NCBI GenBank assembly: GCA_964500695.1
Contig: CAZCNT010000001.1
Span: 1-59,515 of the forward strand
DNA from: an uncultured Gammaproteobacteria bacterium
GTDB lineage: Bacteria; Patescibacteriota; Microgenomatia; UBA8517
Reading direction: 5' to 3'
Length of the DNA stretch: 59,515 bases
In this document: positions 9,138 to 58,420 of the stretch, one piece after another
Layout: every line of letters begins with the position of its first letter
Numbering within the stretch: position 1 is the first letter of the stretch
Position numbers and translations under genes: made by a program
Notes under the pieces: generated by a model
What the model was told of the DNA's origin: nothing
The model's input: the letters and a program-made list of their open reading frames with translations, nothing else
The model's database searches: none

Positions 9138-10244
9138 ATGGTTAAAGTAGGAATTAATGGGTTTGGACGAATCGGCCGGATTGCTTTTAGAATAGGACTT
9201 CTAAAACATTCCGACGAACTTCAATTTGGCGCCATAAACACCTCCGGGAGCATGAATACAGCTGGTTGGGCACATCTGACGAATTATGACACGATGTATA
9301 GAAGATTTGAGTATCAAGTGATGAGTGATGAGTCAAAAAAACCGGAGGAAGCGACAGATGAGGATCCGCAGATAGGAAACTTGATGGTTCCAGAGAGAAA
9401 TATTAAAGTTCCGATTTTGGCACAAAGAGATCCGGCAAAGATCCCTTGGGGAAAATACGGAGTTGATGTGGTAATCGAATCGACAGGTGTTTTTACAGAT
9501 GAAGAAGGAGCCAAGAAACATGCAGTTGGGGGAGCGAAGCGCGTTGTAATTTCGGCACCTGCCAAGGGGGGCAATGTAGAAACGCATATTATTGGAGTAA
9601 ATGAGATTAAAGGAAGTCCTGAGGTGATTTCAAATTCCTCCTGTACGACAAATTCAGTTGCTCCGGTTGCCGCGATAATGTTGGCAAAATTTGGCATTGA
9701 AAAAGCCATGATGACAACTATTCATGGTTATACAGATGACCAAAATTTACAGGATGGAAGCCATAAAGATTTGCGACGTGCAAGAGCAGCCGCTATGAAT
9801 ATTGTTCCAACTTCAACAGGCGCCGCAATTTCGACAACGGAAACAATACCTGAACTTAAAGGAATCTTTGACGGCACGGCTTTAAGGGTTCCTGTTGCCA
9901 CAGGTTCTATAACTGATTTTACTTTTATTGTAAAGAAAGAAGTAACAAAAGAAGACGTAAATAACACCTTTAAAGAAGCAGTAAAAAACCCCATATACAA
10001 GGGAGTACTCGCTATTAATGAGCAAGATATTGTATCTAGTGATATCATAGGAAGAAGTGAGTCTGCAATTGTTGATCTACCTTTAACGCAAGTTGTTGCG
10101 GGAAATATGGTTAAAGTTTTTGCTTGGTATGATAACGAATGGGGGTATGCTAATCGTTTGGTCGAGCAAGTTATCCGAGTGGGCAGGACGTTGGAAAACA
10201 ATAGTGCACCTACTGATCCAATATCATTGTCATTCAAATCCTAA
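9138..10244 (+). CDS. gap: glyceraldehyde-3-phosphate dehydrogenase
   Basis: Contains INGFGRIGR, SCTTNS and WYDNEWGY. Carries an acidic insert near residues 58-80. Confidence 0.92.
   Translation: MVKVGINGFGRIGRIAFRIGLLKHSDELQFGAINTSGSMNTAGWAHLTNYDTMYRRFEYQVMSDESKKPEEATDEDPQIGNLMVPERNIKVPILAQRDPAKIPWGKYGVDVVIESTGVFTDEEGAKKHAVGGAKRVVISAPAKGGNVETHIIGVNEIKGSPEVISNSSCTTNSVAPVAAIMLAKFGIEKAMMTTIHGYTDDQNLQDGSHKDLRRARAAAMNIVPTSTGAAISTTETIPELKGIFDGTALRVPVATGSITDFTFIVKKEVTKEDVNNTFKEAVKNPIYKGVLAINEQDIVSSDIIGRSESAIVDLPLTQVVAGNMVKVFAWYDNEWGYANRLVEQVIRVGRTLENNSAPTDPISLSFKS
9311..9334. repeat. heptamer array GTATCAA GTGATGA GTGATGA GTC translated inside gap
   Basis: Tandem 7-nt period seen directly. It is the reverse complement of the TCAC word family. 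Followed by an A7 run. Confidence 0.6.
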
Positions 10245-10250
10245 ATTCAA

Positions 10251-10331
10251 AACACTAAATTCTAATTAAATTCGAATTTCAAAATTACAATTATAAATTT
10301 TTTTAGAGTTTAGAAATTAGAGTTTAGAGTT
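10251..10331. repeat. cargo-less inverted heptamer arrays (AACACTA AATTCTA ATTAAAT ... TAGAGTT TAGAAAT TAGAGTT TAGAGTT)
   Basis: Lies directly after the gap stop. Homologous in layout and words to 43993..44080. Confidence 0.75.
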
Positions 10332-10340
10332 TTAAATAAT

Positions 10341-10985
10341 ATGGACGAAAAAACAAAATACGCAGGGAAACATATTATAAAAAATATAGCTTTTTTTGGA
10401 GATGCTGATATTTCGGAAACAGATGAGACTTATAAAGCGGCATTTGATGTTGCTGAGGTGTTGGCGTTAGAAGGTTACGTAGTAGTTGACGGCGGGGGAC
10501 CGGGAGTAATGGAAGCAGCTACAAGCGGTGCTGAAAAAGGCGGAGGAAAAACAATAAGTGTGACTTTTGATCCGGTGAATGCTCCCGGATTTGAGGGGAA
10601 ATATGTAGGAAACGTAACAGATGAGGAAATAGTGACTACTAATTATCTCGAGCGAATGTTTAAGCTGATGGAGCATGGCGACATGTTTATTATTTTTAAA
10701 GGCGGAAGCGGCACGATTTCCGAATTTGGCGCAGCCTGGGTACTGGCCAAACTTTATTACGGACACCATAAGCCATTTATTTTATTTGGGGATTTTTGGG
10801 TGGAGATAATTGACGCATTCAGGAAAAATATGAATATAGATTCTAATGAATACAGTGTTTTTGAGATATGCAGAAGTAAAAATGACGTTTTGGCAACCAT
10901 TCATAAATTCGAGGGCAGAATAAATGCCCGAAATCACGAAGATGATAGTAAAAACGATGAGTATGACAAAGCATTTACTAAATAA
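10341..10985 (+). CDS. LOG/TIGR00730-family Rossmann-fold protein
   Basis: Contains GGGPGVMEA and KGGSGTISEF. Confidence 0.8.
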   Translation: MDEKTKYAGKHIIKNIAFFGDADISETDETYKAAFDVAEVLALEGYVVVDGGGPGVMEAATSGAEKGGGKTISVTFDPVNAPGFEGKYVGNVTDEEIVTTNYLERMFKLMEHGDMFIIFKGGSGTISEFGAAWVLAKLYYGHHKPFILFGDFWVEIIDAFRKNMNIDSNEYSVFEICRSKNDVLATIHKFEGRINARNHEDDSKNDEYDKAFTK

Positions 10986-15533: not shown

Positions 15534-15555
15534 ATAAGAAAATTGTAACACAATT

Positions 15556-16006
15556 TTAGATAACTAGATGATTGGAGATTAGTTAATTGGGGTAAAATAA
15601 ATAAATGAAAGACTTTAGGGAATTAGAAGTATGGAAAACAGGATTATCTCTCCTAATTGAAATATATAAAATTACGGCGAAATTTCCAAGATCAGAAATT
15701 TACGGATTGGTTAATCAGATTAGAAGATCCGCGAATTCTATTATAGCTAATATTGCCGAAAGTCAGGGAAGATTTAGTTTTGCTGATCGTGTTAGAGTTT
15801 TATATCTAGCCAGGGGTGAAATATTCGAAGTTCGTTCCCACTTGAGCGTAGCACATGAATTAAAGTATATTGATAAGGTAACTTTTGAAAAACTTGATAG
15901 CAGTTATGAGGTATTGGCGAAGCAAACGAGCTCTCTTATTAATTATTTAGAGAAAAGAAAACATGTCTGATCCAATTTCTAATCAACCAGTAATCCAGTT
16001 ATCTAA
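15556..16006. mobile_element. putative IR-bounded cassette 1 carrying a four-helix-bundle gene
   Basis: The arms 15556..15590 and 15972..16006 are reverse complements. The outer 10 nt are perfect and 24/35 match ungapped by hand. Confidence 0.6.
15605..15970 (+). CDS. four-helix-bundle protein (23S rRNA intervening-sequence protein family)
   Basis: Contains LEVWK...FPRSEIYGLVNQIRRSANSIIANIAES, the family signature. Confidence 0.85.
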   Translation: MKDFRELEVWKTGLSLLIEIYKITAKFPRSEIYGLVNQIRRSANSIIANIAESQGRFSFADRVRVLYLARGEIFEVRSHLSVAHELKYIDKVTFEKLDSSYEVLAKQTSSLINYLEKRKHV

Positions 16007-16991
16007 TATTGCCATGCAAGAAACCATACAAAAACTTTTAGCTTCCGGAAAGGGAATTTTGGCTGCCGACGCAAGGATAAAAAGCATGGGTAAGCGTTTG
16101 GAGGCAATTGGGGTAGAACCCACACCAGAAAATGCCTTGAAATTCCGAGGAATTTTATTTGCCACTCCCGGTATTGGTGAGTTCATAAGCGGAGTAATAC
16201 TTAATGACGACACGGTTCGTAATTCATTGGAAAATAAGCCTGTACCTAAATTTCTTGAAGAAAAAGGAATCACTCCAATTATCAAAGTTGACGAAGGAAT
16301 AGAACCGTTTGGAGAAGGAGAGGAGGAGATAACAAAAGGTTTGGAAACCCTCCCCCAAAAGTTAAAAGAGTACTCAGGAATGGGGTTAAAAGCTACAAAA
16401 TGGAGAGGAGTGATTAAAATCTCCGATATTTACCCGACTGAACCTTTCTTGGAGGAAAATTTCGGCAGGATGATTAAATATGCCAAATTGTGCCAGGATA
16501 ACGCTTTTGTTCCGATTGTAGAGCCTGAAATATTACTTGACGGGAATCATACCACCACTCGTTGTGAAGAAGTTGAAACAAAAGTGCTTAAAATTTTGTT
16601 TGAGAAATTAAAGTCGGGAGGAGTGGATCTAACAAAGCTTATTCTTAAAACAAGCATGGTTCTGCCCGGAAAAGATAGCGGGGTTAAAGCTGCGCCATTG
16701 GAGGTAGCCAACGTTACACTTAGGACACTGAAAGCGGCTGTTCCCTCGGAAGTTCCCGGAATAATATTTCTTTCCGGAGGTCAGACCCCCGATCAGGCGA
16801 CAGACAATCTTAACGAAATAAGTAAACTCAAAGGAGATGTTCCGTGGCAAATATCCTTTTCTTATGAAAGGGCGCTGCAGGAGGAGGCAATGACGGAGTG
16901 GGCGGGAAAGGACGAAAATATTGTAAAGGCCCAAGAAGCATTTTACGAAAGAGTCAGGAATGTTTCGGCTGCAAGGGAGGGAAGGCTCTAG
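15963..16991 (+). CDS. fba: fructose-bisphosphate aldolase, class I
   Basis: Contains GKGILAADARIKSMGKR and is 342 aa. The N-terminal roughly 15 codons are the right arm of cassette 1. Confidence 0.85.
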   Translation: MSDPISNQPVIQLSNIAMQETIQKLLASGKGILAADARIKSMGKRLEAIGVEPTPENALKFRGILFATPGIGEFISGVILNDDTVRNSLENKPVPKFLEEKGITPIIKVDEGIEPFGEGEEEITKGLETLPQKLKEYSGMGLKATKWRGVIKISDIYPTEPFLEENFGRMIKYAKLCQDNAFVPIVEPEILLDGNHTTTRCEEVETKVLKILFEKLKSGGVDLTKLILKTSMVLPGKDSGVKAAPLEVANVTLRTLKAAVPSEVPGIIFLSGGQTPDQATDNLNEISKLKGDVPWQISFSYERALQEEAMTEWAGKDENIVKAQEAFYERVRNVSAAREGRL

Positions 16992-19000: not shown

Positions 19001-19152
19001 GCAAATCTGCAAATCTACCAATTTGCAAATAAGCATAGCTTGGCCAAATTATGAATCTGGTAAATATTTGAATGATTCAATAATTAAATAATTTGAAATT
19101 TATTTGCTTTAGACGAAGTCTCCTAATTTTCCATTTGCTTATTTGTTTATTG
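18999..19152. repeat. octamer word arrays in inverted arrangement (GCAAAT words ... ATTTGC words)
   Basis: Left arm AAGCAAAT CTGCAAAT CTACCAAT TTGCAAAT AAGCA. The right side contains TATTTGCTT and CCATTTGCTTATTTG. CAAATAAGCA / TGCTTATTTG are an exact complement. Confidence 0.6.
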
Positions 19153-37356: not shown

Positions 37357-37805
37357 GGCAAGTAATAAAAGTAAATAAAGTAATGAAGGTAATACAAGTA
37401 TGGAAAGTGGATACAAGAAGCTGATAGTTTGGCAGGAAGCTTTAAAGTTGATAGTTTTGGTTTATAGGTTAACGAAGACCTTCCCAAAATCTGAAGACTA
37501 TGCGCTAAGAGACCAAATAAGGAGAGCGGTGGTCTCGGTGTTAAGCCAGATTGCTGAAGGGTGGCTGCGTAGCTCCAAAAAAGATAAACTTCACTATCTT
37601 GAAATTTCATTAGGTTCTTTAATGGAGGTTGAGTCTCAGGCCGAAGTAGCATTAGCAGTTGGGTACTGGAATTTTAACAATCTGCAAGATTTTGAGGCTC
37701 AACGGGCCAAAGTTTGCTATCTTCTGGTAAGGTATGTTTCTAAGATTAAGTCCGGTTAGCCTTCTTATTACCTGTATTACTTCTATTACGTTTATTACTT
37801 TTTCG
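37356..37805. mobile_element. putative IR-bounded cassette 2 carrying a four-helix-bundle gene
   Basis: The arms 37360..37399 and 37760..37800 are reverse complements (30/40 by hand). They are built of 9-nt GTAAT words. Confidence 0.65.
37400..37759 (+). CDS. four-helix-bundle protein (23S rRNA IVS protein family)
   Basis: Contains LIVWQEALKL...FPKSEDYALRDQIRRAVVSVLSQIAEG. Confidence 0.85.
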   Translation: MESGYKKLIVWQEALKLIVLVYRLTKTFPKSEDYALRDQIRRAVVSVLSQIAEGWLRSSKKDKLHYLEISLGSLMEVESQAEVALAVGYWNFNNLQDFEAQRAKVCYLLVRYVSKIKSG

Positions 37806-37878: not shown

Positions 37879-37953
37879 GGGCCATTCGTTCATCGGCTAG
37901 GACGGGACTCTTATAAAGTCCAAAGGATAGTTCGACTCTATCATGGCCCACCA
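37879..37953 (+). tRNA. tRNA-Ile, anticodon UAU, CCA encoded
   Basis: Hand fold: GGGCCAT-TC-GTTC-ATCGGCTA-GGAC-G-GGACT-CTTATAA-AGTCC-AAAG-GATAG-TTCGACT-CTATC-ATGGCCC-A-CCA. U8, A14, GG, U33 and the TTCGA T-loop are all present. Confidence 0.85.
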
Positions 37954-43992: not shown

Positions 43993-44080
43993 AACTCTAA
44001 TTTCTAAATCCTAATTAAATCCAAAATTGGAATTTGTAAATTAAAATTTATTTAGAGTTTAGAATTTAGGATTTAGGGTT
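43993..44080. repeat. cargo-less inverted heptamer arrays (AACTCTA ATTTCTA AATCCTA ATTAAAT ... TAGAGTT TAGAATT TAGGATT TAGGGTT)
   Basis: 7-nt period on both arms. The arms are roughly complementary when G-U pairs are allowed. Same layout as 10251..10331. Confidence 0.75.
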
Positions 44081-44115
44081 TCAGCTTTAACAAAGCTGAT
44101 GTATAATCCCTCTGT

Positions 44116-46034: not shown

Positions 46035-47000
46035 ATGGGATACAATACACTCATGTCTAAGCTGGTTATTATAGATGGTAATGCAATTCTGCACCGGGCG
46101 TTTCATGCGCTGCCTCCATTAACCACAAAGCGCGGGGAGCCGATAAATGCTGTCTATGGGCTCGTTAGTATGATCCTAAGGGTTATCACGGACCTAAAAC
46201 CAACTCATATAGCCGTAACTTTCGATGAAAGGGCTCCGACTTTTCGTCAAAAAGAACTTCCAACCTATCAAGCCCAACGTCCGCCGATGGCGGAAGATTT
46301 AGGATCGCAGTTTTCAAAAGCCCGTGAATTTTTAGCTGCGGCAAACATTTCCGTTTATTCAAAACCGGGATTTGAGGCGGATGATGTAATTGGCACCATA
46401 GCAACTAGAGCTCAGAGCCTAGAGCCTAGTAAAAAAACTAAGCTCCAAGCTCTAACCCCTAATCTCTCCGAGGTAATTATCGTCACAGGGGACAGGGATC
46501 AGCTTCAACTGGTTGATGATAAAAAGAGAATCAAACTTTACATGCCTGTTGCGGGACTAATCAATGCCAAGCTCTATGATGAAGCGGAAACGATCGAGCG
46601 AATGGGAGTTCCTCCGGTACAGATTACAGATCTGAAGGCTCTAACGGGGGATGCTTCCGATAACTACTTTGGAGTTCCCGGGATTGGGCCAAAAACGGCG
46701 ATAATCCTGCTTTCTAAATATAAATCAGTAAAAGAAATTTATGAACATCTAAACGAGATTCCGAGTAATGTTCGCGAAAAGCTTGGAAAAGGAAAAAAAT
46801 CAGCCGACCAATCATATTTTCTGGCAACAATTGTGCGTGATGTTCCGCTCGATTTAGACTTTGGGGCTATGGGAAAGTGGAATATATCAGGGCCAGAAGT
46901 GATAAAGTTGTTTGAGGAGTTTGGATTTAAGACTTTAACAAAAAGGATTCAGGAGGTAAGTAAAAAAATTGAAGAAGATAAACAAGTCAAAATGTTCTGA
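46035..47000 (+). CDS. 5'-3' exonuclease (Pol I N-terminal/FEN-like)
   Basis: Contains IIDGNAILHRAF, FEADDVIGT, TGDRDQLQL and GVPGIGPKTA. The start is either 46035 or 46053. Confidence 0.88.
   Translation: MGYNTLMSKLVIIDGNAILHRAFHALPPLTTKRGEPINAVYGLVSMILRVITDLKPTHIAVTFDERAPTFRQKELPTYQAQRPPMAEDLGSQFSKAREFLAAANISVYSKPGFEADDVIGTIATRAQSLEPSKKTKLQALTPNLSEVIIVTGDRDQLQLVDDKKRIKLYMPVAGLINAKLYDEAETIERMGVPPVQITDLKALTGDASDNYFGVPGIGPKTAIILLSKYKSVKEIYEHLNEIPSNVREKLGKGKKSADQSYFLATIVRDVPLDLDFGAMGKWNISGPEVIKLFEEFGFKTLTKRIQEVSKKIEEDKQVKMF
46405..46466. repeat. cargo-less inverted heptamer arms with A7 loop, translated in frame inside the exonuclease gene
   Basis: CTAGAGCTCAGAGCCTAGAGCCTAGT-AAAAAAA-CTAAGCTCCAAGCTCTAACCCCTAATCTC. 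Encodes RAQSLEPSKKTKLQALTPNL. Confidence 0.7.
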
Positions 47001-49364: not shown

Positions 49365-50471
49365 CTACTTTTTAAATGTTGTATACAAATCGAAAAGTTT
49401 TTGAGCGGTATTTTTTGCTGAAAAACTCAAAGCGTATTCGTAGGTTTTTTGCGAAAGACTATAATAGTTTTCTTTGTTTTTTGCGATTTCACTTATCTTT
49501 TCTGCGATTTTTTTAGGATTTCTTTCGCAAATATATCCGGATTGGTTGTCAATTATCAGTTCTTCAAGACCAGAACCTTTTAAAGATATGGTAGGAATTC
49601 CTGAAGCCATAGCTTCAAGGATTGAAATCGGCATAACCTCGCTTAATGATGGTGTAATAAAAAGATGAACAGACTTGTATATTTCCGGAATAAGTTTTCT
49701 GTCAACCACTCCCGTAAAGGTTATATTATTTTCAAGTCCCAATTTAAATGTTTGATCCTGCATTTTTTGAAAAAGAAGACCCGAACCTAAAATCCAAAAT
49801 TTAAAATTGGGGATTAACTTTTTGAGCTCTCTGGCTATCTTAATCAATTCCAGAGGGTTTTTTTCTCTATCCAACCTGCCGGTATAAGCCAGTGTCAGGG
49901 GATGAAAGGGTTTTTCTTGAGGTTTATTAAAAAAGAAATCCTCGACGCCATTATTGACAATAATGGTGTTTTTAATGCCGTGTTTAATCAGTCTTTTTTC
50001 AGTGTTTGACGATGGACAAATAACCTTCTTTGATTTTTTGGAAATTTTGACTAAGTCTCTAATCAATATTTTTGAGGTCGCGTCATAACCTTTGGGAAAG
50101 TAATAATTTAAATACTGCTCATATTGTGTATGGGCAGTAAAGAAAAGAGGTTTGCCCAGCCTATCCGCTATTTGCGAAGCCGCCTGCCCGATTATTAAGG
50201 GATGGTGTGTATGGACAATATCTATTTTTAATTTTTTGATTTTTTTTGTGGGTAAGAAGGGAATTCCCATAGGATAATTTTTAATAAACGGGTTAGGCAG
50301 AGACGGATATCGGATAACATCTTTATATTGGTCTTTATATCCCGGGAACGATGGGGCAAGAATATATACTTTATGGCCAAGTTTCCTCAGAGCATCGGCT
50401 GTTGAGCTAATGTGATAAGTGACCCCGTTTGCTGTGGGAAGATAACTGGCTGTTGTGAATAGGATGTGCAT
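49365..50471 (-). CDS. GT4-family glycosyltransferase
   Basis: 368 aa with SEVMPISILEAMASGIPTI. Confidence 0.8.
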   Translation of the reverse strand: MHILFTTASYLPTANGVTYHISSTADALRKLGHKVYILAPSFPGYKDQYKDVIRYPSLPNPFIKNYPMGIPFLPTKKIKKLKIDIVHTHHPLIIGQAASQIADRLGKPLFFTAHTQYEQYLNYYFPKGYDATSKILIRDLVKISKKSKKVICPSSNTEKRLIKHGIKNTIIVNNGVEDFFFNKPQEKPFHPLTLAYTGRLDREKNPLELIKIARELKKLIPNFKFWILGSGLLFQKMQDQTFKLGLENNITFTGVVDRKLIPEIYKSVHLFITPSLSEVMPISILEAMASGIPTISLKGSGLEELIIDNQSGYICERNPKKIAEKISEIAKNKENYYSLSQKTYEYALSFSAKNTAQKLFDLYTTFKK

Positions 50472-50494
50472 TGGGGTGTATTATACTTCATGAG

Positions 50495-51634
50495 ATGATA
50501 AAAAAACTGAAACTTGTCAATTTTAGAAATTTCAAGGCCAAAACGTTGGATTTTTCCGACAAAGTTACGGTGATTGTCGGACCGAATGCCAGCGGGAAAA
50601 CTAATATTCTCGAATCTCTTTTTTTACTTTCTACCGGGAAAAGTTTTAAGGCCAGGATTGAATCGGAAACGATTCAATATTCGAGCGATATCGCTCGAAT
50701 AATAGGTAATACAAGTAATGAAAGTAGTATAAGTAATACACAATTAGAGGTGGTGCAGACGCGCGGGGAGAATGGTTGGCCGAGAAAAAAGCTTCTGGTT
50801 AACGGAGTTCCAAAGCGCTTAATTGATTTTGCAGGAAACTTTAGAACAGTTCTTTTTGGCCCTTGGGATATGGATATTGTTACAGAGAGCCCGAGCCTAA
50901 GAAGAAGGTTTTTGGATACAGTGCTATCCCAAGTTGATAGGGAATACCGACGTTCCATCCTTTCCTATGAAAAAGGATTAAGGCAAAGAAATCGGGTGCT
51001 TTGGACAATGCGGGAGTATCCGACAGGCTCTTCGGGACGCGACAAACTCCTTTTTTGGAACCAACTTCTCATTAAAAATGGGAATTATATTACAGAAGCC
51101 AGGGAAAATTTTATCGATTTTTGTAATTCTCACCAGTCACAAGTCACTAGTCACTATTCACTGGAGTACGACAGGTCCCTAATATCTGAGGGAAGACTTG
51201 AACAGTACAAAGAAGAGGAAATTGCGGCGGCCACAACACTTGTCGGTCCTCATCGTGATGATTTCATTTTTCTGAAAAGTAATACAAGTAATAAAAGTAA
51301 CACAGGTAATATAGGTAGGGAACTGGCCTCATTCGGCTCACGGGGTGAACAGAGGATGGGGATTTTGTGGCTAAAAATGGCGGAATTGGATTATATTGAG
51401 AAATGCTCTACTCTGGATTCGACTCCCTCGGCAGACCTCAGTTCGCTCACCATTCGTCGGAGCGCGGACTCACGTCCGACGCTTCTTCTCGACGATATAT
51501 TTTCGGAACTGGATCATGAACACAGGGAAGTGGTTATGCAAATCTCAAAAAAACAACAGACGATAATTACCACGGCAGACCCGCATTTTGTCAGCAATTT
51601 GAAAAAAGTGGAGAGAATTGAACTGTTGAGATAG
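50495..51634 (+). CDS. recF: DNA replication and repair protein RecF
   Basis: Contains LKLVNFRNF, GPNASGKTN and LLLDDIFSELD. Start taken at MIKKL. Confidence 0.9.
   Translation: MIKKLKLVNFRNFKAKTLDFSDKVTVIVGPNASGKTNILESLFLLSTGKSFKARIESETIQYSSDIARIIGNTSNESSISNTQLEVVQTRGENGWPRKKLLVNGVPKRLIDFAGNFRTVLFGPWDMDIVTESPSLRRRFLDTVLSQVDREYRRSILSYEKGLRQRNRVLWTMREYPTGSSGRDKLLFWNQLLIKNGNYITEARENFIDFCNSHQSQVTSHYSLEYDRSLISEGRLEQYKEEEIAAATTLVGPHRDDFIFLKSNTSNKSNTGNIGRELASFGSRGEQRMGILWLKMAELDYIEKCSTLDSTPSADLSSLTIRRSADSRPTLLLDDIFSELDHEHREVVMQISKKQQTIITTADPHFVSNLKKVERIELLR
50705..50740. repeat. 9-nt GTAAT word array in recF (GNTSNESSISNT)
   Basis: GTAATACAA GTAATGAAA GTAGTATAA GTAATACAC. Confidence 0.7.
51131..51164. 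repeat. heptamer array CACCAGT CACAAGT CACTAGT CACTATT CACTGG in recF (HQSQVTSHYSL)
   Basis: 7-nt period seen directly. Confidence 0.7.
51277..51316. repeat. 9-nt GTAAT word array in recF (SNTSNKSNTGNIG)
   Basis: Shares the exact 16-mer CAAGTAATAAAAGTAA with the cassette-2 arm (37359..37374). Shares a 19-mer with 40581..40600. Confidence 0.75.
51404..51480. repeat. G+C-rich in-frame insert in recF containing a T-arm-like GGATTCGACTCC and hairpin CGTCGGA...TCCGACG
   Basis: Encodes CSTLDSTPSADLSSLTIRRSADSRP immediately before the conserved LLLDD. GGATTCGACTCC also occurs at 38118..38129. Confidence 0.55.
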
Positions 51635-53343: not shown

Positions 53344-55032
53344 ATGCAATTTAGCGAGCTCGCTTTATATCTTGAAAAGCTTGAAAAAACCTCCTCCAGG
53401 CTTGAAATTACAAGGATTTTATCGGAACTTTTTGAGGCGACAACTTCTGCTGAAGTTGATAAGATAGTTTATTTATCTCTTGGTATTTTGGCGCCGAATT
53501 ATGAGGGGGTTTTATTAAATTTGGCCGAGAAAATGATGATCAGAACTCTCGCTCTGGCGTTTAATAAAAGCGCAGACGAGGTAAAAAGCCTTTACAAAAA
53601 ATCAGGTGACTTGGGAGATACCGCAGAGGAGCTTTCACAATCCACAGTTCACCCTTCACAGTTCACAGTTACTGATGTCTATGAAAAACTTTTGGATATT
53701 GCCAAGGACAACGGAGAGGGATCGCAGGAGCGGAAAATTGAAATGACGAGTAGTCTTCTTAAAAATCTGGATTCTCTCTCAGTGCGGTTCGTTGCCAGAA
53801 TTCCGGTTGGGAAACTTAGGTTAGGTTTCTCAGAAAAAACAATAATAGAAGCACTAGGAATTTCTGATACGGAATATAATATTTATCCTGATATTGGTCA
53901 TATTGCATATCTTACAAAAACTAATAATTTAAAAAATATAAAACCAAAAATTGGTGTACCTGTTGTCCCAATGCTTGCAGCCAGACTTAATTCAACGACT
54001 GAGATGGTTGCCAAAATGGGACAAGTATCAGTAGAACCTAAATTTGATGGATTAAGAATCTTTATACATTTTAAACGCAAAGATAATATCGTAAAAATCT
54101 TTACGAGAAACATGAACTCAATTCCTCTGGAAACTTTTCCGGAACTTCTCGGTGTCGGTAAATTTATAAAAGCAGAGGAGGTTATTCTTGATAGTGAAGC
54201 AATAGGGATTGACCCCACTTCGCCAAGGCTTCGTGGGGCTGGTGTGTTTTTGGATTTCCAAAAAACAATTCAAAGAAGAAGAAAGCACAATATAAAAAAA
54301 ACCGCCGGCGAAATTCCGCTGCAATTTCAGATTTTTGACGTACTTCTTCTCAACGGCAAAAGTTTGATTAACGAACCGTATATTAATAGGCGCATGGAGC
54401 TTGAAAAGATTATTATTGGTGGAAGTTTACTTCGGGTTGATGAGAACACCGTTACAAAAGACCCTGAAATTATTAAGGAAATGCACAAAAAATACTTAAA
54501 GATGGGACTTGAGGGGGTTGTTGTTAAAAAAGCTAATGGAAAATATGTATCAGGCAGAACCGGCTGGAATTGGGTCAAGATGAAAGAGGAGGAAGGTCAG
54601 AGCGGTAGACTCTCTGACACTCTAGATTGCATTGTAATGGGCTATTTTACAGGGAAGGGTAAAAGGGCACAGTTTGGACTGGGTAAAATTTTAGTAGGCA
54701 TCAAAGATGGAGATGTTATACGCACATTAACCAAAGTGGGCACTGGTTTAACAGAGGCTATGCTTGTTGAGATTAAAAACAGACTTAATAAATTACAATC
54801 AAAGGAAAAACCAAAAGAATATGAAGCCCAAAAAGACTTAATTCCTGATGTTTGGGCAATACCTAGCTTAGTGATTGAAGTAACGGCTGACAGTATATCA
54901 AAAAGTACAAAACATTCACTAGGGCTTTCCCTTCGTTTTCCAAGGTTTTTAAAAATAAGGGAAGATAAAGGAGTAAACGAAGCAACAACACTAAAGGAGT
55001 TAAAAGCGATAGCTAAGACGCAAAAAAAATGA
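53344..55032 (+). CDS. lig: ATP-dependent DNA ligase
   Basis: EPKFDGLR (KxDG adenylation motif). 562 aa with DNA-binding, adenylation and OB-domain layout. Confidence 0.88.
   Translation: MQFSELALYLEKLEKTSSRLEITRILSELFEATTSAEVDKIVYLSLGILAPNYEGVLLNLAEKMMIRTLALAFNKSADEVKSLYKKSGDLGDTAEELSQSTVHPSQFTVTDVYEKLLDIAKDNGEGSQERKIEMTSSLLKNLDSLSVRFVARIPVGKLRLGFSEKTIIEALGISDTEYNIYPDIGHIAYLTKTNNLKNIKPKIGVPVVPMLAARLNSTTEMVAKMGQVSVEPKFDGLRIFIHFKRKDNIVKIFTRNMNSIPLETFPELLGVGKFIKAEEVILDSEAIGIDPTSPRLRGAGVFLDFQKTIQRRRKHNIKKTAGEIPLQFQIFDVLLLNGKSLINEPYINRRMELEKIIIGGSLLRVDENTVTKDPEIIKEMHKKYLKMGLEGVVVKKANGKYVSGRTGWNWVKMKEEEGQSGRLSDTLDCIVMGYFTGKGKRAQFGLGKILVGIKDGDVIRTLTKVGTGLTEAMLVEIKNRLNKLQSKEKPKEYEAQKDLIPDVWAIPSLVIEVTADSISKSTKHSLGLSLRFPRFLKIREDKGVNEATTLKELKAIAKTQKK
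53636..53672. repeat. heptamer array CACAATC CACAGTT CACCCTT CACAGTT CACAGTT AC in the ligase gene (QSTVHPSQFTVT)
   Basis: 7-nt period seen directly. Confidence 0.7.
54213..54238. repeat. 26-nt element CCCCACTTCGCCAAGGCTTCGTGGGG inside the ligase gene (read as PTSPRLRG)
   Basis: One mismatch relative to 12331..12356. Read in a different frame. Confidence 0.9.
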
Positions 55033-56509: not shown

Positions 56510-56836
56510 ATGGCAGGAACAGGACTTAAAAAAGAAACAGCAGCAGCTTTAGCTACGCTTTTGGGACCCACTTTGGTAGTACCGGTACTCTTCATCCTTC
56601 TTGAAAAGGATGAGTTCGTGCGTTTTTGGGCTTTCCAATCGATAGTAGTTTACTTGGTACTTTTTGCTTTGAACTGGGTTTTGATATTTACCATCTTTTT
56701 AGCGATACTCACTCCTTTGGTTTTTGTGTTCGGAGTGGTTCTTTGGTTGGTAATGACATACAAAGCATGGCAGGGAGACAAATGGGTGGTACCGGTACTG
56801 GGGAAGTTGGCAGTTAAGTTAATGAATAAAGCCTAA
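56510..56836 (+). CDS. DUF4870-like small membrane protein
   Basis: 108 aa with three TM segments and ...YKAWQGDKWVVPVLG. Confidence 0.6.
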   Translation: MAGTGLKKETAAALATLLGPTLVVPVLFILLEKDEFVRFWAFQSIVVYLVLFALNWVLIFTIFLAILTPLVFVFGVVLWLVMTYKAWQGDKWVVPVLGKLAVKLMNKA

Positions 56837-57286
56837 GTTAGCTATTAGCTACTAGCTACTAGAGCTTAGAGCCTAGTTATATTAGAATTTGTTTGTGGCG
56901 ACGATTAAGTGCTTTGAGGATCTTTTGGTTTGGCAAAAAGCTAGAGTGCTAGTTAAGAGAATTTACAGCATAACTTCTTCTTTTCCTTGTGAGGAAAAAT
57001 TTGGCCTAATTGATCAGATTCGTCGTGCAGTCGTATCTATTATGGCAAATGTTGCCGAGGGATTTTCGCGCTATCGGATAGCTGAGACGGTTATGTTTTA
57101 TCGAACAGCAAGAGGGTCCCTATCTGAGGTTAAAAATCATTTGTATATTGCATTAGATTTAGGCTATATTAATAGCACTGAATTTAAAAAACTTGTGGAA
57201 ACAATAGATGAAATTGGGAAAATGCTAAATGGTTTGATAAATTCAACTGAGAATTATAGAAAAACTAAGCTCTAGGCTCTAATGAC
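56837..57286. mobile_element. putative IR-bounded cassette 3 carrying a four-helix-bundle gene
   Basis: Left arm heptamers GTTAGCT ATTAGCT ACTAGCT ACTAGAG CTTAGAG CCTAGTT. Right arm AACTAAGCTCTAGGCTCTAATGAC. The core is 18/21 complementary by hand. Confidence 0.6.
56889..57275 (+). CDS. four-helix-bundle protein (23S rRNA IVS protein family)
   Basis: Contains LLVWQKARVL...FPCEEKFGLIDQIRRAVVSIMANVAEG. The start is non-ATG (TTG 56889 or GTG 56895). Confidence 0.8.
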   Translation: MFVATIKCFEDLLVWQKARVLVKRIYSITSSFPCEEKFGLIDQIRRAVVSIMANVAEGFSRYRIAETVMFYRTARGSLSEVKNHLYIALDLGYINSTEFKKLVETIDEIGKMLNGLINSTENYRKTKL

Positions 57287-57758
57287 TATGAAACTTATAA
57301 TTGGGTTGGGAAATCCCGGAAAGGATTACGAGAACACCCGTCACAATGTCGGTTATATGATAGTGGACAGATTTAGGAAGATTGGTCTTTCGAAAGGTGT
57401 AATGGTGAAAAAATCGGATGTTTTTATGAACAGCTCGGGAGAATTTGTTAAGAAAATTACTGAGCTCTATCCTCTAAGCTCTAATAGCTTATATATTGTT
57501 CACGATGATCTTGATATCCCTCTTGGATCATACAAAATCCAGTTTGGGCGGGGGCCGAAAGACCATAACGGTTTAAAATCGGTTGATGAAGCCTTGGGAA
57601 CGGATCAATATTGGCATGTGAGGGTGGGGATAGAGAATAGAGCTCAGAGCTCAGAGGTTAGTGGATACGACTATGTTCTCCAAAATTTTAGCGATGAAGA
57701 AAGAATAATTTTGAAAATGGTTGTACAAGAGGTATGCCACAAACTTGACAACATATAA
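57282..57758 (+). CDS. pth: peptidyl-tRNA hydrolase
   Basis: Contains GLGNPGKDYENTRHNVG and VHDDLD...HNGLKS. Confidence 0.9.
   Translation: MTMKLIIGLGNPGKDYENTRHNVGYMIVDRFRKIGLSKGVMVKKSDVFMNSSGEFVKKITELYPLSSNSLYIVHDDLDIPLGSYKIQFGRGPKDHNGLKSVDEALGTDQYWHVRVGIENRAQSSEVSGYDYVLQNFSDEERIILKMVVQEVCHKLDNI
57461..57490. repeat. AGCTC-word patch inside pth (TELYPLSSNS)
   Basis: TGAGCTCTATCCTCTAAGCTCTAATAGCTT. Same word family as the cassette-3 arms. Confidence 0.45.
57636..57664. repeat. heptamer patch TAGAGCT CAGAGCT CAGAGGT TAGTGG inside pth (RAQSSEVS)
   Basis: Shares TAGAGCTCAGAGC with 46406..46418. Confidence 0.5.
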
Positions 57759-57779
57759 CATACAACATATACTCTAAGC

Positions 57780-58031
57780 ATGGTACGAACACAAGTATAT
57801 CTAAGCGAAGATCAAGATAGGGAATTAAGGTTAAGAGTTGCCCTTGGAGAGGGTACTTTTTCTGGGTTGATTAGAAAAAGCATAGATGAGTTAATCAAGA
57901 AAAATACTAAATCTAAAAAAAATAATGATTGGAATAAATGGAAAAGTTTTATTGGAGCTTGCAAAACTGATTTTGGGGGCAAAAGTGGTCAGGAATTAAT
58001 AGATGATTATTATCAAAACGACGTCGTATGA
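57780..58031 (+). CDS. ribbon-helix-helix antitoxin (VapB-like)
   Basis: MVRTQVYLSEDQDRELRLRV has the RHH pattern. 4-nt overlap with the PIN gene. Confidence 0.75.
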   Translation: MVRTQVYLSEDQDRELRLRVALGEGTFSGLIRKSIDELIKKNTKSKKNNDWNKWKSFIGACKTDFGGKSGQELIDDYYQNDVV

Positions 58032-58420
58032 AATATATACTCGACTCCGATTTCCTTTTTGGTTTATATGTCATTCATGATCCACACCATAAAGAAACGA
58101 CTTCTTCACTTAGAAAAATCCAAAAAAATAAAGATAAACTCATTATTCTCAATTTGGTAATTCAAGAAACAGCTACAGTATTAAGTAGAAAAGATAGCCA
58201 AAAGACAGGCTTAATCTTTCTAGAAGAAATACTGAAAATGCCAGTAGAAATTATGAGCTTGGATGAAGAGGATAAAAAACTAGCTTGGGAGATATTTAAG
58301 AAACAGACCAAAAAAGGAACTTCATTTATTGATTGTGCGAATCTGGCAATTGCAAAGAAGTATAAATTTGACGGAATTTTATCCTTTGATGAGTTTTATG
58401 CTGGGATCAAAGTTAAATGA
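58028..58420 (+). CDS. vapC: PIN-domain toxin (VapC-like)
   Basis: Contains YILDSDFLF...QETATVL...FIDCANLA...SFD acidic residues. Confidence 0.8.
   Translation: MKYILDSDFLFGLYVIHDPHHKETTSSLRKIQKNKDKLIILNLVIQETATVLSRKDSQKTGLIFLEEILKMPVEIMSLDEEDKKLAWEIFKKQTKKGTSFIDCANLAIAKKYKFDGILSFDEFYAGIKVK

Follow-up and report, generated by a model that had tools for sequence, protein, structure and literature searches.

At positions 56837 to 57286 of a 59,515-nucleotide stretch of DNA (the window: contig CAZCNT010000001.1, GenBank assembly GCA_964500695.1, deposited as an uncultured Gammaproteobacteria bacterium and placed by GTDB in the Patescibacteriota, Microgenomatia, UBA8517), a gene of the PF05635/TIGR02436 family is enclosed by a ladder of six tandem heptamers on one side and an inverted, partial copy of that ladder on the other. 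We put at about one in two the probability that this arrangement is a stem-loop cassette of the type known as an intervening sequence (IVS) of rRNA, here resident in a protein-coding operon, wherein the PF05635 gene would occupy the loop, the inverted 7-nucleotide ladders would form the stem, and the stem would be processed by RNase III. What appears to be new is the occurrence of an IVS-type stem-loop cassette in an operon context, together with a heptamer-ladder signature that extends across the protein family. A first-pass annotation, made from the sequence alone, had read the region as a cassette with a four-helix-bundle cargo between paired heptamer arms. This reading is supported, as the pairing of the arms is not matched by shuffled sequences, and in homologous cassettes of relatives the gene is likewise enclosed by arms that pair and belong to the same word family.

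The three cassettes, the host genes mamF and pth, and the ladders within pth and the exonuclease gene all lie on the forward strand. The upstream host gene (mamF, 56510 to 56836), assigned from the Pfam annotation of an identical public contig and from synteny, encodes a membrane protein of the MamF_MmsF family. The left arm (56837 to 56878) begins one base past the TAA of this gene, such that the stop codon abuts the ladder, and consists of the heptamers GTTAGCT ATTAGCT ACTAGCT ACTAGAG CTTAGAG CCTAGTT, exactly as the first-pass annotation had listed them. Tandem Repeats Finder (TRF) reports an array within this arm at 56839 to 56862, and the stem-forming core of the arm is located at 56860 to 56878. 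Between the left arm and the start codon, comparison of flanks reveals a TATATT box (56878 to 56883), which reads TATATT in locus L166 and TATAAT in locus L168. This box is possibly an internal −10 element; a promoter scan gave a result not above that of shuffled sequences, and the box was absent from its list. The cargo gene follows at 56895 to 57275. The right arm (57263 to 57286), AACTAAG CTCTAGG CTCTAAT GAC or AACTAAGCTCTAGGCTCTAATGAC, is the inverted ladder copy; in reverse complement it agrees with ACTAGAGCTTAGAGCCTAGTT at 18 of 21 positions, a complementarity that had likewise been proposed at the outset.

The right arm encodes the last codons of the cargo (K-T-K-L-stop, with the TAG at 57273 to 57275) and also holds the first ATG of the open reading frame (ORF) of pth (57282), which codes for peptidyl-tRNA hydrolase. 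To this extent the first-pass annotation was correct, but its proposal that pth starts at this ATG probably does not hold. In an alignment with 22 relatives, it is the second ATG (57288; MKLIIGLGNPG), immediately past the arm, that is conserved as the pth start. Because orthologues begin at this next ATG, 6 nucleotides downstream, the ATG at 57282 is probably not the real start, and we place pth at 57288 to 57758 (PF01195, E value of 8e-43). No terminator-like sites were found between mamF, the cargo gene, and pth.

Two start codons fit the cargo ORF, TTG at 56889 and GTG at 56895, as had been anticipated. The GTG form of 126 amino acids is on record in public groundwater assemblies with identical surroundings, and an exact look-up of the TTG form found nothing. 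The protein matches PF05635 with an E value of 2.4e-39 (134.2 bits, cut-off 33.8) and the NCBIfam model TIGR02436, "four helix bundle protein," with an E value of 3e-36 (123.9 bits, cut-off 24). By sequence comparison, its nearest solved structure is Xcc0516 (PDB 2GSC; E value of 2.3e-18 over residues 8 to 118), which has been described as a homopentamer of four-helix bundles (PMC4990558). These matches bear out the four-helix-bundle identity first assigned to the cargo. An RRxxxSxxxNxAEG motif is strongly conserved in the family (see also PMC3936711). PADLOC gave no defense-system match for this protein or for the other two PF05635 proteins of the window. Furthermore, PF05635 is the only gene inside the cassette, which thus lacks the recognizable transposase expected of a transposon or of the partner of a miniature inverted-repeat transposable element (MITE).

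The window holds three cassettes of this kind, and the one under study, the third, is compared here with cassettes 1 and 2, whose positions are given below. In each of the three, the minimum free energy (MFE) structure and the centroid structure alike have the arms paired as the terminal stem. In the 476-nucleotide fold of cassette 3, this stem joins 56860 to 56878 with 57264 to 57281 through about 18 base pairs with one bulge. The flank-to-flank duplex has a predicted stability of −43.2 kcal/mol (z of −2.8), and none of 60 dinucleotide shuffles was as good; with narrower flanks, z was −4.0 and none of 200 shuffles was as good. When real sequence served as the control, the cassette's own right flank ranked 15th among 2378 windows, whereas that of cassette 1 ranked first and that of cassette 2 ranked first and third (two overlapping windows). 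The left ladder is itself quasi-palindromic (AGCT/CTAG). Thus, the arm pairing of cassette 3 is real and beyond chance, but modest.

Comparison with relatives bears on the age of the cassette. The locus order DNA ligase (lig), (membrane protein), mamF, pth is conserved among pth-related loci. Among the loci found via pth, only the near-identical strain L086 carries the cassette, with five heptamers rather than six and a G-to-A change that converts a G-U pair to A-U. The next relatives, L088 and L093, lack the cassette and have gaps of 22 and 59 nucleotides without a ladder, and more distant pth-related loci carry a phosphoribosyltransferase-like gene at its position. The intergenic DNA of L088 and L093 is too diverged to align, so no junction or target-site duplication is definable there. 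Absence from the closest pth relatives might be taken to indicate a recent insertion. We reject this interpretation because the closest non-identical cargo homologues, found by protein search (76, 74, 65, and 65% amino acid identity), all lie directly upstream of pth. Orthologous cassettes at the same junction argue for old residence with loss, or for gain by recombination, rather than for a fresh jump. The cassette is therefore an old resident of the junction upstream of pth in a Woesebacteria-like lineage, and some branches have lost it or exchanged it by recombination.

The arms have been retained along with the gene. In the 74% and 65% homologues, whose DNA is readable, they are built from the same word family, the left arm containing TTAGAGCTTAG and the right arm CTAAGCTCTAA, although unit numbers vary among the orthologous cassettes (L171 has two heptamers more than L170). 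The right-arm motif CTAAGCTCTAA is kept even though its frame relative to the stop codon differs between orthologues, and therefore the constraint is on nucleotides rather than on the peptide. Synonymous sites of the cargo orthologues are saturated (pS of about 0.7), and dN/dS is about 0.1. Given this saturation, the low ratio, and the kept arm core, both the protein and the arms are constrained, and the sequence comparison indicates that the cargo protein is under purifying selection. RNAalifold applied to six orthologues predicts the terminal stem, with 19 pairs that are mostly invariant, one of them compensatory. Complementarity with unrelated words is seen only between different loci.

Several other observations concern the surroundings of the cassette in these strains. 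Between the window and L086, near-identity begins in mamF, spans the cassette, and extends about 70 nucleotides into the pth ORF, beyond which the two are strongly diverged for about 200 nucleotides (the mosaic at 57352 to 57550), near-identical for about 150, and then diverged again. Within the diverged block of pth, L086 carries an extra TCAATTT/TCAAATC ladder. This mosaic block indicates that recombination between lineages occurs around the cassette. Loci L170 to L172, which carry the 65%-identical cassette, have an extra ladder hairpin without a gene, again built from this word family (TTTTAGCTGTTAGCCGTTAGAGATTAG ... CTAAGCTCTAGTAGCTAATAAC), between cargo and pth. In addition, two independent public metagenome contigs (L002 and L003) have the first base of the left ladder (GTTAGCT...) as their own first base. 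Because both contigs end precisely there, this suggests that ladders break short-read metagenome assemblies.

The same architecture recurs far beyond this lineage. A family scan with the three window proteins as query, restricted to one genome per species, recovered 80 loci distributed among Patescibacteria, Bacteroidota, Acidobacteriota, Planctomycetota, Verrucomicrobiota, Chloroflexota, Proteobacteria, Firmicutes, and other phyla. For each, the 100 nucleotides before the gene were paired with the 100 nucleotides after it, and 152 pseudo-genes displaced by 750 nucleotides at the same loci served as controls. A flank duplex with z below −3 was present in 45% of the 80 loci compared to 1.3% of the displaced controls (Mann–Whitney p of 1.6e-16). 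Of the 137 flanks that contain an array, 94 have a period of 7 and 23 a period of 14 in the best TRF array adjacent to the gene, with an independent lag test as a second line of evidence. Copy number has a median of 4.4 (interquartile range [IQR] 3.6 to 4.7), and arrays stand on both sides of the gene in 47 of 83 loci and on at least one side in 70.

The arm words are mutually unrelated among loci and include GGGGCAA, GTGACAA, GGTAATC, GAGTCGG, ACTCGGG, GGAAATT, AGATGCC, and AATAAAG. An interpretation of the ladders as stop-codon arrays in all three frames fits the TAG/TAA words of cassette 3 but fails for words from other phyla such as GGGGCAA, and was rejected. The 20 best-paired loci contain no rRNA and no match to any Rfam family. 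Among the 37 strongly paired loci, 27 have a more stable duplex in the sense strand than in the antisense strand and 10 show the opposite (mean difference −4.5 kcal/mol, Wilcoxon p of 0.007), a bias not seen in weakly paired loci. The sense bias therefore suggests that pairing takes place in the RNA, in which G-U pairs are tolerated.

Plasmids of cultured bacteria also carry such cassettes, as with the CAGGAGT ladders around the gene in Nostoc punctiforme (z of −5.2), the GGGTGTA ladders in Calothrix brevissima (z of −6.0), and the GGTTCAA ladders in Riemerella anatipestifer (z of −4.2). In Picosynechococcus PCC 7003, the PF05635 gene is wedged between cmr2 and cmr3, a type of placement noted for Pleurocapsa in an earlier survey (PMC3936711). 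The Nostoc PCC 7120 plasmids gamma (L173) and alpha (L174) encode an identical PF05635 protein with a CTCTGCC ladder of five units downstream only. On gamma, an ISL3 transposase gene lies on the upstream side, and the arrangement looks like a cassette that has lost its left arm.

The IVS-type reading suggests the following course of events. The three genes mamF, cargo, and pth would be transcribed together, given that no terminator separates them, and the arms would pair in the sense RNA to form the stem. By analogy with rRNA IVSs, for which cleavage was demonstrated experimentally, RNase III would cut this stem. Cleavage would free the cargo mRNA and leave the conserved pth AUG (57288) nearly at the 5′ end of the downstream product, which could explain why an element is tolerated directly before an essential gene. 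The heptamer periodicity would also let the stem re-pair in a shifted register whenever the ladder grows or shrinks by a unit, in keeping with the unit gains and losses that are both observed between strains.

A near-5′ start codon might not be unusual in this lineage. In cassette-free relatives, a −10-like box stands about 4 to 8 nucleotides before the pth ATG, and this proximity suggests that leaderless or near-leaderless mRNAs, pth included, are common there. Boxes of the extended −10-like form (TGnTAnAAT) precede the pth ATG in L088, L096, L098, L117, L120, and L128. Within the window, positions 57745 to 57773 contain an 11-of-12 promoter match that ends 6 nucleotides before the ATG of the ORF at 57780.

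Several points weigh against the IVS-type reading. The pairing of cassette 3 is the weakest of the three in the window, and its stem is short (about 18 base pairs with a bulge). Placed in an 876-nucleotide context, the left arm forms a hairpin of its own, and its predicted duplex with a ladder internal to pth (−32.0 kcal/mol) is slightly more stable than its duplex with the right arm (−28.6 kcal/mol). The stem in the orthologous group is conserved rather than covarying, with only the one compensatory pair among 19, and this lack of covariation means that arm conservation could reflect a role at the DNA level or in protein binding. Cleavage without ligation in an operon that includes an essential gene presupposes, as we assume here, a translatable downstream mRNA. 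The RNase III signature motif was not found in the six-frame translation of the window, which is a small part of the genome and thus uninformative on this matter. Finally, the model assigns the PF05635 protein no role and leaves the period of 7 unaccounted for.

Two alternatives in which the protein acts on the ladders are compatible with an RNA stem rather than exclusive of it. One possibility, for which we see roughly the odds of an outside contender, is a two-part selfish system resembling REPIN/RAYT elements (repetitive extragenic palindromic sequences, or REPs, with their REP-associated tyrosine transposases), in which the arms would be cis substrates, the PF05635 protein would be the trans factor that spreads or maintains ladders of its own word, and gene-less hairpins would be non-autonomous members. 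Each of the three window cassettes indeed has its own ladder word, and the words of cassettes 3 and 2 recur in gene-less form 3 to 13 kb away. The word family YTAGAGCYTAGAGC, allowing up to two mismatches, has 10 occurrences (0.8 expected), which include both arms, two sites in pth, and the 5′-3′ exonuclease gene, and the nonamer family of cassette 2 has 15 (0.58 expected), which include two recF sites. Arrays of period 7 to 9 with at least three copies number 18 in the window compared to 0.33 in shuffles, an approximately 50-fold excess. In-frame, gene-less ladder insertions of 42 nucleotides in the exonuclease gene and 33 nucleotides in recF, the absence of the cassette from L088 and L093, and the mosaic recombination pattern around it also agree with a mobile system, as do family members wedged in cas operons (PMC3936711) and the flanking REPs that RAYT genes likewise have (PMC3116915). 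However, the protein is a helical bundle of 126 amino acids without a recognized nuclease, transposase, or recombinase motif, the diverged intergenic DNA defines no target-site duplication or precise junction, and the closest homologues reside at the same locus, which favors vertical inheritance over recent jumps. Moreover, neither the words found inside pth nor two of the three recF ladders represent insertions.

The unit number, held tightly around four to five, is instead suggestive of protein-binding arrays, a reading that we regard as unlikely but worth stating. A pentameric PF05635 ring would bind about five heptamers, as DNA or RNA, beside its own gene for autoregulation or protection, and at other ladders as a regulon. 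The family is homologous to Avd of diversity-generating retroelements (DGRs), which reportedly works on structured template RNA together with the reverse transcriptase of the DGR. The homopentameric Xcc0516 (PMC4990558) and the strongly conserved RRxxxSxxxNxAEG motif (PMC3936711) are consistent with binding, as is the conservation of the ladder core as sequence, beyond pairing alone, and an earlier conjecture took the paired heptamer or octamer arrays of Geobacter for binding sites of global regulators (PMC2700814). Set against this, words differ completely from one locus to another although the conserved protein motif is nearly constant, the bias toward sense over antisense favors an RNA helix, and about 30 base pairs is also simply a good length for an RNase III substrate. 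Two further explanations deserve little weight. Replication slippage by chance in an AT-rich genome, with a meaningless inverted arrangement around the gene, would draw on the known tendency of heptamer repeats to slip and on their excess in bacteria (reviews in PMC4692102 and PMC4679880), and it agrees with unit numbers that vary between strains and with a pairing that, for cassette 3 alone, is only moderately significant. It is nonetheless very improbable in view of the family-wide statistics for flank pairing and arrays, the conservation of arms where synonymous sites are saturated, and the occurrence of the same architecture with unrelated words in unrelated phyla. The chance that the cargo is the accessory (Avd) gene of a DGR is close to nil, and we reject this reading: the protein weakly matches bAvd (43.9 bits against a cut-off of 40) and DivGenRetAVD (45 bits), but the latter score (NF033474, 45.1 bits) is far under its equivalog cut-off of 80, and no reverse transcriptase is among the neighbors annotated on the identical contig. 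A repeat scan of 56700 to 57500 gave only short matches of the ladder type and no template/variable pair.

The other ladders of the window include those of the two remaining cassettes. Cassette 1 (15555 to 16012) has a PF05635 gene at 15605 to 15970 between inverted arms TTAGATAACTAGAT... and ...ATCCAGTTATCTAA, and cassette 2 (37360 to 37800) has one at 37400 to 37759 between inverted AAGTAATAA ladders of period 9. With three unrelated arm words, the three cassettes share no terminal repeat of the kind that copies of a transposon or MITE would have. A tRNA-Ile gene (anticodon TAT, 37879 to 37953), called by ARAGORN and below the Rfam gathering threshold, is located about 80 nucleotides past the right arm of cassette 2.

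The first-pass annotation had also pointed to words of the cassette 3 family inside pth and the 5′-3′ exonuclease gene. The words are present in both genes, but only in the latter do they represent an insertion. In pth, repeat and pairing scans locate ladder words in right-arm orientation at 57460 to 57489, where they code for ELYPLSSNSL and provide an alternative partner of the left arm, and a repeat scan and alignment identify a second ladder (AGAGCTC, 2.6 units, coding RAQSSE) at 57637 to 57656. We reject these as insertions because they replace orthologous residues without any change in length relative to 22 orthologues. In the exonuclease gene (ORF 46035 to 47000), a gene-less ladder hairpin at 46405 to 46470 lies in frame and adds 14 codons (42 nucleotides, or 6 × 7) relative to solved Pol I 5′ nucleases.

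Additional ladders lie elsewhere in the window. Intergenic, gene-less hairpins of inverted hepta- or octamer ladders are present at 10232 to 10332 (CTAAATT/TTTAGAG), 19001 to 19151 (AAATAAGC/GCTTATTT), and 44000 to 44090 (TCTAAAT/ATTTAGA), and direct copies of the octamer AAATAAGC also occur after stop codons at 10980 and 11786. The recF gene (ORF 50471 to 51634) contains ladders at 50705 to 50738, 51130 to 51162, and 51277 to 51311, two of them with the cassette 2 nonamer in direct orientation. Relative to solved RecF, only the third is an insertion (11 residues, 33 nucleotides), whereas the first two replace codons at the same length; a separate, GC-rich insertion of 19 residues at about 51405 to 51470 has no ladder. 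The ATP-dependent DNA ligase gene (ORF 53344 to 55032) carries a TTCACAG ladder of 5.3 units at 53634 to 53670, coding LSQSTVHPSQFTV. Directly after pth, at 57780 to 58420, an ORF of 83 amino acids overlaps a PIN-domain ORF by 4 nucleotides. The two likely constitute an antitoxin/toxin pair, and they also occur together in L101 and L133.

These findings join two old puzzles, namely the role of the protein family of rRNA IVSs (S23p) and the purpose of heptamer repeats in bacteria. The S23p family is very common and homologous to Avd, and its stem-loop context has hitherto been discussed only for the rare 23S rRNA copies. Heptanucleotide tandem repeats, for their part, are the most over-represented of the longer simple repeats in many bacteria. 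In 80-plus loci from more than 10 phyla, PF05635 genes in ordinary operons are typically bracketed by inverted ladders of about four to five units. In the open-access literature on PF05635, TIGR02436, S23p, Xcc0516, and heptamer repeats, we found no account of ladder arms flanking copies outside rRNA. We speculate, as a tentative proposal that we consider possible rather than probable, that heptamer ladders and PF05635 proteins are the two halves of a widespread system, with a separate word for each paralogue, a pentamer that reads or acts on about five units, and gene-less hairpins, among them those lying in frame within enzyme genes, as non-autonomous partners or targets. If true, this would provide both a cause for the heptanucleotide excess in Xanthomonas, Geobacter, Beggiatoa, and the short tandemly repeated repetitive (STRR) sequences of cyanobacteria, and a function for the protein family of rRNA IVSs. 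Several questions thereby become testable, including whether cleavage of the stem by RNase III enables a selfish gene to travel within operons, even ahead of an essential gene, whether the protein recognizes the ladder, and whether ladder counts track the gene family.

Heptamer arrays reported previously include GGGAATC in Xanthomonas and GGGGAYT in Nostoc (PMC4692102), TAACTGA in Beggiatoaceae (PMC4679880), paired hepta- and octamers in Geobacter (PMC2700814), and the STRR sequences of heterocystous cyanobacteria (Calothrix) in the form in which the heptamer-repeat papers cite them. Like the ladders examined herein, these are short 7-nucleotide arrays that are mostly intergenic, often in convergent pairs, variable in length, and sometimes within genes. 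Unlike the arrays as published, those described here bracket one protein family, PF05635, specifically. Term searches of the Beggiatoaceae (PMC4679880), Xanthomonas/Nostoc (PMC4692102), and Geobacter (PMC2700814) papers returned no link to PF05635 genes among the terms used.

Other repeat systems offer partial parallels. REPIN/RAYT elements (PMC3116915) likewise combine a single gene with inverted short-repeat flanks, paralogue-specific repeats, and repeats dispersed as gene-less hairpins, as is also found here. In contrast, RAYT is an HUH-type transposase with catalytic motifs, of which PF05635 has no recognized ones, REPs are imperfect palindromes rather than tandem heptamers, and the mobility of ladders is only putative. 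The homology of the cargo to DGR Avd lies in the four-helix-bundle fold; unlike a DGR, the cassette has no reverse transcriptase or template/variable repeats in view, and the cargo scores under the Avd equivalog cut-off. Rickettsia palindromic elements are selfish hairpins that reside in frame within coding genes. The exonuclease ladder hairpin resembles them in adding 14 codons in frame with the ORF intact, although the likeness is limited to gene-less ladders, which are periodic and short and several of which replace codons.

The closest parallels are the IVSs of 23S rRNA in Leptospira and Coxiella burnetii, whose ORF belongs to the same family (S23p/PF05635) and likewise lies in the loop of a long complementary stem. 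The Coxiella IVS is 428 nucleotides in length with a 28-base-pair terminal stem and a PF05635 ORF in the loop, and carries tandem GACAGAT heptamers, in strain-variable number, just before the ORF, with RNase III cutting at the first repeat (PMC4990558). The cassette is similar in size (both are about 430 to 450 nucleotides), has complementary termini that form an enclosing stem, albeit with competing folds, and has heptamers in its 5′ arm before the ORF, six here and five in the close strain. It departs from the definition of an IVS, an insertion in a helix of 23S or 16S rRNA, by residing between mamF and pth, two protein-coding genes of a conserved operon; the window contains no rRNA, and a single tRNA is its only match to an Rfam family. 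Also unlike the rRNA IVSs, the cassette has a right arm that overlaps the cargo stop codon and abuts the start of the next gene, and its excision by RNase III is putative. Lastly, whereas the ORF of the Coxiella IVS is decaying, the protein of this cassette is maintained by purifying selection, with a dN/dS of about 0.1.

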